IMG/VR virus record: IMGVR_UViG_2547132488_000019
Coordinates: 1 to 12,996 of that record
Source: a virus
Taxonomy: Duplodnaviria; Heunggongvirae; Uroviricota; Caudoviricetes
Direction: 5' to 3' (one strand)
Length of the DNA stretch: 12,996 nucleotides
The translations under genes and the position numbers were made by a program. Shown one piece after another: positions 112 through 1,519 of the stretch (position 1 is its first letter; the number at the start of each line of letters is the position of its first letter). The notes beneath the pieces were generated by a model. The model was not told where the DNA came from and searched no databases. It was given only the letters and a program-made list of their open reading frames with translations.

Positions 112-1209
112 ATGGCGTACTATAACATAGAGAAACGACTAAAATCCGATGGCACACCACGCTATCGCTGTAATGTGATTATCAAAGAAAAAGGTGTTAT
201 CACTTACAGGGAAAGCAAAACATTCCCTAAACATGCTCATGCCAAAACATGGGGCACACAGAAAGTGATGGAATTAGATCTATATGGCATTCCATCATCA
301 AATGCAGTTGACGGACTTACAGTCCGTGACTTACTACACAAATATTTAAATGACCCAAATGCCGGAGGTAAAGCAGGCCGTACTAAAAGATATGTGCTAG
401 AACTGATTATGGATAGTGACATCTCCGCGATCAAACTATCTGAACTGACAGAAAATGACGTAATTGAACATTGCAGGCTAAGAAACAACGCTGGCGCAGG
501 TCCAGCAACAGTCAGCCACGATGTTAGTTATCTTGGTAGTGTTCTGGATGCGGCCAAACCTGTATACGGAATTAATTACACATCAAACCCGGCGAAAAGT
601 GCTCGTCCATATCTACTTAAACTTGGTTTGATTGGTAAATCAAACCGTCGTAATCGTAGACCAGCATCTGATGAACTGGACATGCTAATTGAAGGCCTTC
701 AACAACGATCTACTCATAAATGCTCAAAAATTCAGTTCGTTGATATCCTCAAATTTTCTGTGTGGTCCTGTATGCGAATCGGAGAAGTATGCCGGTTACG
801 ATGGGAAGATCTCGACCAGGAACAAAAATCTATACTCGTAAGAGACAGGAAAGATCCACGCAAAAAGGAAGGCAACCACATGAAAGTAGCCTTGCTTGGG
901 GAAGCCTGGGATATCGTCCAACGACAGCCCCAAAAATCGGAATTCATTTTTCCATATAACAGCACTTCTGTTACTGCGGGATTTCAGAGAGTAAGAAGCA
1001 AATTAGGTATTAAAGATCTGCGATACCATGATTTGCGTAGAGAAGGGGCAAGTCGCTTATTTGAGGCTGGTTTTAGTATTGAGGAAGTCGCCCAGGTTAC
1101 AGGGCATCGTTCATTAAACGTGCTATGGCAGGTATATACCGAACTGTATCCGAAATCTTTACATAATCGTTTTGAAGAGCTCCAAAGGAGCAGAAATAAG
1201 ACCCCTTGA
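112..1209 (+). CDS. int: Tyrosine-type site-specific integrase/recombinase
   Basis: 365 aa; C-terminal catalytic signature of tyrosine recombinases (Arg in ...MRIGEVCRLRWEDL..., H-x-x-R in ...YHDLRREGASRLFEAG..., GHRS... and terminal Tyr in ...VYTELY); SD GAGG 7 nt upstream of ATG. Confidence 0.8.
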   Translation: MAYYNIEKRLKSDGTPRYRCNVIIKEKGVITYRESKTFPKHAHAKTWGTQKVMELDLYGIPSSNAVDGLTVRDLLHKYLNDPNAGGKAGRTKRYVLELIMDSDISAIKLSELTENDVIEHCRLRNNAGAGPATVSHDVSYLGSVLDAAKPVYGINYTSNPAKSARPYLLKLGLIGKSNRRNRRPASDELDMLIEGLQQRSTHKCSKIQFVDILKFSVWSCMRIGEVCRLRWEDLDQEQKSILVRDRKDPRKKEGNHMKVALLGEAWDIVQRQPQKSEFIFPYNSTSVTAGFQRVRSKLGIKDLRYHDLRREGASRLFEAGFSIEEVAQVTGHRSLNVLWQVYTELYPKSLHNRFEELQRSRNKTP

Positions 1210-1234
1210 CACTGTTTATCCATACAGCTAAAAA
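1206..1234 (+). promoter_or_regulatory. Sigma70-like promoter of the dinI-like gene (-35 TTGACA 1206-1211, 17-bp spacer, -10 TAAAAA 1229-1234)
   Basis: Perfect -35 hexamer overlapping the int stop codon; -10 is a 4/6 match. Position relative to the LexA boxes is typical of SOS promoters. Confidence 0.5.
1210..1229 (+). promoter_or_regulatory. LexA box 1 (cACTGT-ttatccat-ACAGct)
   Basis: CTGT-N8-ACAG at 1212-1227, overlapping the promoter spacer. Confidence 0.55.
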
Positions 1235-1237
1235 TAA

Positions 1238-1257
1238 TACTGTATACAAACACAGTA
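1238..1257 (+). promoter_or_regulatory. LexA box 2 (TACTGT-atacaaac-ACAGTA)
   Basis: Both half-sites match the E. coli SOS-box consensus TACTGT-N8-ACAGTA exactly; sits between the -10 and the SD of the dinI-like gene. Confidence 0.75.
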
Positions 1258-1270
1258 TAGAGGGACTTTT

Positions 1271-1519
1271 ATGCGTATTGAAATCTGCATAGCCAAAGAA
1301 AAAATGACTAAAATGCCAACCGGTGCTGTGGATGCGTTAAAGGAAGAATTAACCCGACGCATCAGTAAGCGTTATGACGATGTAGAGGTGATCGTAAAAG
1401 CCACCAGCAACGATGGCCTTTCTGTTACGCGCACAGCCGATAAAGATTCAGCTAAAACTTTTGTGCAGGAAACTCTGAAAGATACCTGGGAGTCTGCTGA
1501 CGAGTGGTTTGTTCACTAA
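1271..1519 (+). CDS. dinI: DinI-family protein (DNA-damage-inducible protein I-like, RecA modulator)
   Basis: 82 aa; MRIEICIAK..., ...GAVDAL..EL.RRI..., ...LSV..., C-terminal ...[16 protein letters not shown] closely match E. coli DinI as I recall it; SD GAGGG 7 nt upstream; preceded by two LexA boxes. Confidence 0.88.

Follow-up and report, generated by a model that had tools for sequence, protein, structure and literature searches.

Phage-borne dinI homologues under direct LexA control have been described in Salmonella, where promoter replacement, together with induction by either mitomycin C or nalidixic acid, showed those of Gifsy-1, -2 and -3 to depend on LexA (PMC3121763, PMC8072944). 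Located past the replication genes, each Gifsy gene has a single LexA box at 19 nt from its ATG and stands first in an operon (PdinI-gfoA/gftA) with an antirepressor and irsA; non-polar deletions of dinI did not measurably affect induction (PMC3121763). In the linear plasmid prophage PhiKO2 and in Serratia phage OS31 (p60), a DinI-like gene adjoins the tail-fibre genes in divergent orientation, one LexA box has been described about 14 nt upstream, and translation of p60 is coupled to that of an ORF downstream of it (PMC7556043). Tum of coliphage 186 is a LexA-controlled protein of 146 aa in which a DinI-like C-terminal half is joined to an N-terminal antirepressor part (PMC3121763). The chromosomal dinI of E. 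coli is a core-genome member of the LexA regulon with a single operator. An SOS-controlled phage DinI module is already known, being common and routinely annotated in temperate enterobacterial phages.

Here we characterize a dinI-like gene in a 12,996-nt stretch of phage DNA (the window, to which all coordinates refer; features lie on the plus strand except for the two operators, which are assigned no strand). Like the Gifsy homologues the gene is prophage-borne and of the 82-aa class, but it has two LexA boxes, is predicted to be monocistronic and is located between int and tail-fibre genes. Unlike OS31 p60 it is not translationally coupled to the ORF that follows, and unlike Tum, with which it shares predicted LexA control, it encodes DinI only. 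With chromosomal dinI it has in common the fold family, the length class, the acidic C-terminal helix motif and, by prediction, a place in the LexA regulon, whereas it is phage-borne and carries two predicted operators.

The closest described counterparts are in mEp460 (JQ182728, mEp460_021), cdtI, 2H10 and many Stx-converting phages, which contain essentially the same module at 92–98% DNA identity between the -35 hexamer and the end of the gene. In mEp460 the same integrase is found upstream, and the record annotates a TTGACA-N17 promoter in the corresponding position. The window departs from mEp460-type copies by a C at position 1228, by the loss of 40 nt from the 3'UTR and by a protease cassette inserted after the gene. 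The phages also differ in their tails, which are of Mu/e14 type in the window and of lambda type in mEp460-type phages.

A stand-alone DinI-family protein

The dinI-like gene occupies 1271–1519, with its ATG at 1271 and its stop codon at 1517–1519, and encodes 82 aa. The original prediction had called the product clearly DinI-like, and an HMM search agrees: Pfam PF06183 (DinI) matched at 70.9 bits against a cut-off of 24.2 (E = 1e-19), with profile positions 1–63 of 63 covered, and E. coli DinI (PDB 1GHH/7YWA) was matched over its full length (E = 3.7e-13, residues 1–81 aligning with 1–79) at 49% identity. In an alignment of 17 sequences that included E. coli DinI, the C-terminal motif W-E-x-A-D-x-W-F was invariant (W73, E74, A76, D77, W79 and F80), and six of the last 24 residues are acidic. 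The acidic C-terminal helix of DinI was reportedly identified by Voloshin et al. in 2001 as the RecA-contacting surface. No additional domain was detected by the Pfam and PDB comparisons, which describe a full-length, stand-alone DinI, and PADLOC-DB gave no match to the protein. Identical 82-aa proteins were found in many IMG/VR contigs.

In 186, PSP3, Fels-2 and Gifsy, LexA-controlled antirepressors are either fused to DinI-like sequences or genetically linked with them (PMC3121763), and by this precedent the window protein could itself be an antirepressor, or the partner of one, in an induction switch such as that of 186 Tum or the Gifsy operon. We consider this improbable. The window protein shows no domain besides DinI in these comparisons, and in PSP3 and Gifsy the antirepressor activity maps to a separate ORF, the Gifsy dinI deletions leaving induction unaffected (PMC3121763). 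We found no small antirepressor ORF of the Gifsy kind co-transcribed after the window gene, nor any conserved ORF between its stop codon and the terminator. Two candidates, the ORFs at 1504–1677 and 1509–1682, were rejected as Gifsy-like antirepressors, as both cross the terminator hairpin and neither is kept in relatives, because the 3'UTR of the relatives differs by a 40-nt indel. The reading of the gene as a monocistronic dinI is the one that we adopt below.

Boundaries and distribution of the module

Upstream of the gene lies a tyrosine integrase gene (112–1209; Pfam Phage_integrase, E = 6e-21), which adjoins dusA in the closest genome (NZ_CM171611). Homology with many phages and genomes begins exactly at 1206 and ends at the hairpin after dinI, and between genera the sequence upstream of TTGACA is unrelated. 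Close relatives show four upstream and 19 downstream contexts, the same integrase being upstream in 54 of 63. The segment thus delimited was found in 92 phage records, and about a third of E. coli genomes (1825 of 5426) carry it, at 3414 places. The gene, presumably dispensable for lytic growth, is enclosed by its own promoter (1206–1235) and terminator (1548–1586), and its varied contexts are set off by sharp breaks in homology at both ends. As judged from these alignments, the dinI module is a moron that spans the -35 hexamer to the terminator hairpin.

Two predicted LexA operators at the dinI promoter

The promoter elements were found where they had been predicted, with a small correction to the -10 hexamer. 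A perfect TTGACA -35 hexamer is located at 1206–1211, at the 5' edge of the mobile module, and the TGA stop codon of int (1207–1209; int ORF 112–1209) falls within it. The CTGT-N8-ACAG box expected in the promoter spacer has its core at 1212–1227 and belongs to a distal operator, CACTGTTTATCCATACAGCT (1210–1229), which occupies the spacer and overlaps the end of the -35 hexamer. The TACTGT-N8-ACAGTA box expected over the transcription start constitutes the proximal operator, TACTGTATACAAACACAGTA (1238–1257), which spans the predicted start, has an approximate heterology index of 3 and agrees with the consensus TACTG(TA)5CAGTA at 17 of 20 positions, the other three falling in the central spacer. 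The -10 region (1229–1235) is not a clean TAAAAT; the sequence reads either TAAAAA (1229–1234, with a 17-nt spacer, the choice annotated in the mEp460 record) or AAAAAT (1230–1235, with an 18-nt spacer). With either choice the predicted start is at about 1241–1243, within the proximal box. The -10 hexamer has only four of six matches, a point against the reading proposed below. A Shine-Dalgarno sequence, GAGGGA, can be read at 1260–1265, 5 nt before the ATG.

To score these boxes we used an approximate LexA matrix that draws on some 27 operators of E. coli. The proximal box scored 22.5 bits and the distal box 19.6 bits, the best and second best values in the window, with the next-best 20-mer at 9.4 bits and a top score of 14.9 over 30 shuffles. 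Both boxes follow the CTG-N10-CAG form around an A/T-rich centre, and their values are inside the 12.5–27 bit range of the sites on which the matrix was trained. Both are placed as operators of the LexA regulon are, overlapping the core promoter or start (the distal box in the spacer, the proximal box over about +1). The CTGT-N8-ACAG pattern occurs twice in the 12,996 nt, both times at the dinI promoter, against 0.14 occurrences expected. The distal box has a C at 1228 where 59 of 59 close relatives examined have a T, at a cost of about 1.6 bits.

Identity among close relatives is 95–100%, so that conservation among them says little, and the palindromes might be non-functional passengers of recent common descent beside a gene that is constitutive like many morons. 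More distant comparisons make this very improbable. Of 80 DinI-family loci, drawn from many genera of Enterobacterales, 73 had at least one LexA box within 130 nt upstream of the gene. The background elsewhere in these loci was 0.044 boxes per kb, which makes boxes about 190-fold enriched ahead of the DinI genes. Moreover, the layout TTGACA-CTG-N10-CAG-(-10)-CTG-N10-CAG is preserved in Escherichia, Shigella, Pantoea, Trabulsiella, Mixta and Erwinia, across which box interiors and flanks diverge while the CTG/CAG half-sites and their positions are retained. These half-sites and positions persist in DinI genes at 58–72% protein identity, and the same two-box layout is found, in changed promoter surroundings, in a second phage DinI type (80 aa, 25–30% identical). 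In addition, the homologous Gifsy promoters are demonstrably LexA-dependent (PMC3121763).

Across genera the boxes keep their positions relative to the ATG, about -41 for the distal box and -13 to -15 for the proximal box, and all two-box relatives have an A/T-rich, TAAA-type hexamer between the boxes. The spacing from box to box ranges from 24 to 29 bp among relatives, and strict cooperative binding of LexA is therefore not implied. From these comparisons, the two-operator layout, with one operator in the spacer and one at the start, is an old, conserved design that is common to two very different phage DinI types.

The neighbouring protease gene

It had also been suggested that the dinI-like gene forms a damage-responsive pair with a peptidase-like gene downstream. 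This gene (1789–2793) is annotated in RefSeq records of relatives as an SDH-family protease with a Clp fold; its match to Pfam SDH_protease is weak and below the cut-off (27 versus 31.3 bits). It lies within a 1.54-kb insertion (1527–3065), defined by blastn colinearity with a relative (L015), that also contains degenerate sequence and is bordered by repeats of the dinI 3' end. At its downstream border is a remnant of the last ~17 nt of the dinI coding sequence, AGTAGTTTGTTCATAAAT, which stands at 3066–3083 without the gene (direct repeat D3) and aligns with the dinI 3' end of L015. A terminator scan assigned the protease gene its own terminator at 2814–2839, followed by a T-run. The protease was also considered as a known defence gene and rejected, given the absence of a PADLOC-DB match and the sub-threshold Pfam score. 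For a "LexA family regulator" pseudogene beyond the protease gene, the RefSeq annotation of relatives is the only source; a tblastn search with cI-type repressors from three protease loci detected no repressor remnant in the window.

Were the two genes one damage-responsive unit, LexA-controlled transcription would have to read through past the hairpin into the protease gene. Such a unit would fit two observations, namely that this protease variant occurs solely beside the dinI module in complete E. coli genomes (21 of 21 cases, in dusA and prfC contexts) and that no consensus promoter is found within 200 nt before the protease gene. However, the 21 cases are 97.7–99.5% identical and hence represent one lineage, and the protease is absent from all the other places among the 3414 at which the dinI module occurs. 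The repeat-flanked insertion is missing from the colinear relative L015. Homologues of the protease at 60–84% identity in Klebsiella, Kluyvera and E. coli are found immediately behind a repressor gene of the cI type, and no DinI gene lies within 4 kb of them. A hairpin and a run of five U separate the two genes in the window, in which the LexA-matrix scan found no third LexA box. We consequently see little chance that the genes form one unit. With the protease on a separate insertion, equipped with its own terminator and having homologues that occur without dinI, the proposed pairing is not upheld, and the sequence comparisons indicate that the dinI module has no functional relation to the protease gene beside it, which was brought in by an insertion of its own.

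A proposed role in the SOS response

The core of the original prediction, a DinI-family moron with a LexA-repressible promoter and two operators, is supported by family searches, chance controls, conservation across genera and the Gifsy precedent. We conclude that the element is very probably a standard SOS-controlled phage moron encoding a DinI-family protein. We propose that in an undamaged lysogen dimers of host LexA would occupy both operators, in the spacer and over the start, and jointly silence an otherwise strong sigma-70 promoter. Upon DNA damage, RecA filaments would form and promote self-cleavage of LexA, whereupon the promoter would fire and yield a short monocistronic mRNA predicted to end some 65 nt beyond the stop codon, at the hairpin with its U-tract. 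Judging from its homology with E. coli DinI, the protein of 82 aa would use its acidic C-terminal helix to bind RecA filaments and would modulate filament stability and co-protease activity. Occupancy by LexA, the kinetics of induction, contact with RecA and any benefit to phage or host are what we infer for this locus. The two-operator layout predicts tight repression, with expression only under deep LexA depletion. A role of dinI in tuning prophage induction is plausible but unproven, the Gifsy dinI deletions having been without effect on induction (PMC3121763).

Since the module is widespread, its promoter is annotated in mEp460 and LexA control has been shown in Gifsy, the finding is correct but ordinary. 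The exact module is present in thousands of database entries and adds little as a finding. Two modest points go beyond routine annotation, these being the conserved two-operator layout and an RNA-like element that usually follows these dinI genes.

A two-hairpin element in the dinI 3'UTR

The predicted terminator after the dinI-like gene is a real hairpin, whose stem is backed by compensatory changes in relatives. It belongs to a shortened 3'UTR (1520–1586), begins 29 nt past the dinI stop codon and consists of a stem at 1548–1581 and a U-tract at 1582–1586; taken alone, its fold energy is unexceptional (z = -1.06). Read against the usual 3'UTR of ~115 nt in relatives, the window's 3'UTR is a truncated two-hairpin element in which a 40-nt deletion took the 5' arm of hairpin 1. 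A covariance model matched this truncated copy at 1503–1586 with 56 bits, and an intact orphan copy is present at 3101–3188 (103.5 bits; repeat D1).

The element is ~90 nt long and is the usual 3'UTR of DinI-family genes in phages. Both of its stems show compensatory changes, G-U pairs are confined to the sense strand, and its invariant loops, AAUCAUUCAAUACUCGCACUAUCGAA and UCUUGCAUACG, are nearly unchanged even where the adjoining coding sequence is down to 70% nucleotide identity. In E. coli the element was found at 5354 places, spread over 3065 of 5426 genomes. The covariance model found no copy at the lower-identity (41–51%) DinI-family loci of other genera, which we presume to be chromosomal.

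A strict association with dinI was considered and rejected. For 95 elements the available upstream sequence reached 300 nt or more, and 53 of them had no upstream DinI ORF of the 82-aa type detectable by tblastn; of these 53, 19 follow an 80-aa, MsgA-like DinI type and the remainder other sequences. Phage lambda has a copy between ea31 and ea47 (24,157–24,245, minus strand) that adjoins no dinI gene. The element was also rejected as the lambda sib/tI site beside attP, as the model had no match near lambda attP (27.5–27.8 kb). In K-12, hairpin 2 alone adjoins Int arm-type repeats at the right end of Rac.

No Rfam family matched the element at gathering score and none covers the dinI 3'UTR, the sole resemblance being between the antisense of hairpin 2 and the 3' end of CssrB (32 bits versus a gathering score of 76). 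An Rfam IS009 match in mEp460 falls in the tail-fibre region and is irrelevant here. Literature searches for a named sRNA at the position of the element (AgvB/anti-sRNAs, Pas sRNAs, EcOnc27) gave nothing relevant.

One RNA described from a dinI 3' end is DinR of Klebsiella, which is processed by RNase E, is bound by Hfq and carries a seed against ftsZ (PMC10907235). The DinR seed is described as Klebsiella-specific (PMC10907235). The 3' element reported here is conserved and structured. That the two-hairpin element is an undescribed functional RNA is a tentative suggestion from its conservation and structure, and we rate it as rather unlikely. Behind dinI the element would be SOS-induced, and by analogy with DinR in Klebsiella it could be a 3'UTR-derived regulatory RNA. 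Alternatively, it could be a processing or retroregulation signal for leftward int and b-region transcripts. An element so widespread and structurally conserved after these dinI genes deserves a look at the RNA level. If it is an SOS-induced regulatory RNA, it would connect prophage morons with post-transcriptional control of the host in over half of E. coli strains.

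A promoter with two predicted LexA operators precedes the dinI-like gene

The integrase ORF (112–1209, + strand, Pfam Phage_integrase) terminates in a TGA at 1207–1209 that lies inside a perfect TTGACA −35 hexamer (1206–1211, + strand). The promoter spacer contains the distal LexA box, CTGT-N8-ACAG at 1212–1227 (full 20-mer CACTGTTTATCCATACAGCT, 1210–1229), and the proximal box (TACTGTATACAAACACAGTA, 1238–1257) agrees with the LexA consensus TACTG(TA)5CAGTA at 17 of 20 positions, with all of the mismatches central. The overlap of the −35 with the int stop and the two boxes are thus located where the original prediction had placed them. 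That prediction was also right in putting the predicted transcription start inside the proximal box. Only the −10 calls for a correction, as it is not a clean TAAAAT. A promoter scan gives TAAAAA (17-nt spacer) or AAAAAT (18-nt spacer) between the boxes, and the start falls within the proximal box with either choice. A Shine-Dalgarno sequence, GAGGGA, follows at 1260–1265 (+ strand).

CTGT-N8-ACAG occurs at two sites in the 12,996-nt window, compared with 0.14 expected for the window from shuffled sequences, and both sites fall within the same 60-nt intergenic stretch. We also scored the window with an approximate LexA position matrix built from ∼27 E. coli operators of the literature (range of training sites 12.5–27 bits). 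The two boxes score 22.5 and 19.6 bits and are the top two 20-mers of the window; the third best reaches 9.4 bits and the best among 30 shuffles 14.9 bits. The 19th position of the distal box (1228) is a C in the window and a T in 59 of 59 close relatives with upstream sequence, a change predicted to weaken the distal operator slightly (19.6 versus 21.2 bits). Judged from the sequence, this is a near-consensus promoter with two high-scoring operators at positions where bound LexA would exclude RNA polymerase.

The 82-codon gene downstream (ATG at 1271, end at 1519, + strand) had been predicted to encode a DinI-like protein, which is borne out by a match to Pfam DinI (PF06183) at 70.9 bits (cut-off 24.2) and by a full-length match to E. 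coli DinI (PDB 1GHH, 7YWA; E = 3.7e-13), with which the product shares 49% identity. The C-terminal W-E-x-A-D-x-W-F motif is invariant in an alignment of 17 sequences, and no extra domain was found in the product.

The two-operator layout is conserved

We compared 80 DinI-family loci (41–99% protein identity) drawn from Enterobacterales, with each species represented by one genome. Of these, 73 carry one or more LexA boxes within 130 nt upstream of the gene, 16 of them two, against a background density of 0.044 boxes per kb elsewhere in these loci. No box was seen in seven loci; six of these are from Yersinia and have a match that does not begin at a start codon, which probably means that the actual start of the gene was overlooked. 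For the 82-aa phage type the layout is TTGACA-CTG-N10-CAG, an A/T-rich −10 and a second CTG-N10-CAG, with boxes at about −41 and −14 from the ATG. This layout is kept in Escherichia, Shigella, Pantoea, Trabulsiella, Mixta and Erwinia, among which the box interiors, the leader and all sequence 5′ of TTGACA differ. Preservation of half-sites and positions through such divergence argues for operator function, while the centre-to-centre spacing of 24–29 bp does not imply strict helical phasing. A second phage DinI type (80 aa, MsgA-like; IMG/VR loci L185–L286, e.g. L268) is 25–30% identical to the window protein, ends in QEMFEE[AS]DMWLVSD and has the same architecture of TTGAAT, box, TATAAAT, box and ORF followed by a two-hairpin element. 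We found no explicit description of a conserved two-operator layout in the literature.

The dinI unit is a mobile module

The window covers the left end of a prophage with Mu/e14-type baseplate and tail genes that in the closest genome adjoins dusA. Between its DNA-circulation-type and tape-measure genes is a 173-aa ORF (9747–10268, − strand) with a signal-peptide-like N-terminus (MKKMFILLLAVGLPLNSFA...), which by sequence looks like another accessory gene inserted in the tail operon.

Ninety-two phage records, among them mEp460, cdtI, 2H10 and many Stx phages, contain the stretch from 1206 to the dinI stop at 92–98% identity. Among 5426 complete E. coli genomes, 1825 carry the module, which is present there at 3414 places in total and in up to 7 copies per genome. 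In many phages and genomes homology starts exactly at the −35 hexamer. On the 3′ side the module is bounded by a hairpin with five consecutive U residues a short distance past the dinI stop, and beyond it the relatives compared diverge completely. Close relatives have the module in 4 upstream and 19 downstream contexts, and the upstream neighbour is the same integrase in 54 of 63. A mobile unit with sharp edges at the −35 and the hairpin, its own promoter and varied surroundings fits the definition of a moron, as was proposed. Every sequence-level feature examined thus points to a DinI-family gene carried as a moron under a promoter with LexA-regulon features.

The protease gene arrived separately

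The original prediction also raised the possibility that the dinI-like gene and the peptidase-like gene downstream form a damage-responsive pair. This gene (1789–2793, + strand) encodes an SDH-family Clp-fold serine protease. A colinear IMG/VR relative (L015) matches the window over 1–1526 and then resumes at 3066, which identifies 1527–3065 as a 1.54-kb insertion carrying the protease gene. Direct repeats that comprise the dinI 3′ end and hairpin lie on either side of the insertion (1503–1575 and 3066–3178), and the protease gene has its own strong terminator (2814–2839). This protease variant is present in only 21 E. coli genomes (97.7–99.5% identical throughout). Homologues with 60–84% identity in Klebsiella, Kluyvera and other E. 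coli prophages are located directly 3′ of a cI-type repressor gene, with no DinI gene within 4 kb. The separate insertion, the terminator and the position of the homologues all argue against the proposed pair. The homologues occupy the same position as rexAB of lambda, an analogy that suggests a lysogen-expressed accessory or exclusion function; the protease has no PADLOC match. RefSeq annotates a frameshifted LexA-family/S24 repressor fragment just 3′ of the protease in related genomes (corresponding to window 2844–3017, − strand, transferred from L003 6678–6851). This fragment could be left over from the immunity region that supplied the protease cassette; tblastn with three cI-type proteins did not confirm it.

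A two-hairpin element follows dinI

In most relatives the dinI 3′UTR is ∼115 nt long and contains two hairpins. Hairpin 1 consists of GGCTGG, a 33-nt loop containing CATTCAATACTCGCACTATCG, and CCAGCC; hairpin 2 consists of CCGCAGCACGT, the loop TCTTGCATAC and GACGTGGCTGCGG. The window has two copies, one after dinI (1503–1586) in which a loss of 40 nt has removed the 5′ arm of hairpin 1, and an intact orphan of ∼90 nt (3101–3188). On the opposite strand of the latter, RefSeq calls a 35-aa "capsid protein" (3076–3183, − strand equivalent; L001 7977–8084), almost certainly a false ORF prediction within a conserved non-coding repeat.

In 40 distinct versions, 88.9% of cells are paired compared with 27–57% when partners are slid, and 0 of 500 shuffles match the observed values, statistics that are inflated by related sequences. 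Both sides have changed in 15 of 20 pairs (e.g. GGCTGG/CCAGCC to GACTGGC/GCCAGTC), and G-U pairs occur on the dinI strand only. Most versions were gathered by an exact 21-mer in loop 1, which is therefore invariant there by construction. The dinI coding DNA of Pantoea and of one other locus is only 70–71% identical, yet over 24 nt of loop sequence the identity is 100%. The compensatory changes seen in each stem, together with the near invariance of the loops, suggest that the structure is under selection.

Of 5426 E. coli genomes, 3065 contain the element, at 5354 places altogether. Most often it makes up the 3′UTR of a phage DinI-family gene, of either type, and it follows other sequences too. 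Lambda (NC_001416) has a full copy on the leftward (−) strand between ea31 and ea47 (24,157–24,245, 95.8 bits) and an additional hairpin-2-like copy between tfa and ea47. We take the element to be a feature of lambdoid b regions in general. In K-12 Rac only hairpin 2 is present, next to the attR arm-type repeats: at the right end of Rac (L295 29727–29900, − strand) hairpin 2 and a U-tract directly follow repeated TTTTGCCCC motifs that resemble integrase arm-type sites. In some phages (L045, L087) repeats of a similar kind, ATGCCCC, are found ahead of the dinI promoter, so that the dinI moron there lies between attP arm sites and hairpin 2.

No Rfam family reaches its gathering score on the element, no RNA annotation is among the RefSeq features listed, and we found no paper that names it. 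Because the U-tract after hairpin 2 is missing in about half of the copies, the element is not simply a canonical terminator. It could act as a terminator or RNA-stability module, a processing signal or a regulatory RNA. The last option is worth testing given that the 3′ end of the Klebsiella chromosomal dinI yields the Hfq-dependent sRNA DinR (PMC10907235).

Relation to known systems

Based on established SOS regulation, LexA would repress the dinI promoter in the lysogen and RecA-stimulated LexA self-cleavage would derepress it. With two operators, one of them very strong, repression would be tight and expression limited to deep LexA depletion. By homology, the product would bind RecA filaments and modulate their stability and co-protease activity. 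In Salmonella, LexA controls the dinI homologues of the Gifsy prophages and DNA damage induces them (PMC3121763; regulon data in PMC8072944), but deleting these homologues left prophage induction unchanged (PMC3121763). Unlike the Gifsy-type dinI-antirepressor operon, the window unit has no conserved downstream ORF and so is not of that type.

Our analysis confirms the observation and supports its interpretation, apart from the pairing with the protease gene. Phage-borne DinI-like genes preceded by LexA boxes are known from Gifsy prophages, PhiKO2, 186/Tum relatives and Serratia phage OS31 (PMC3121763, PMC7556043), the mEp460 GenBank record annotates the same promoter and names the gene DinI-like, and many other public records annotate the identical module; the finding is thus correct and already known. 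To this the conserved two-operator layout makes a small addition.
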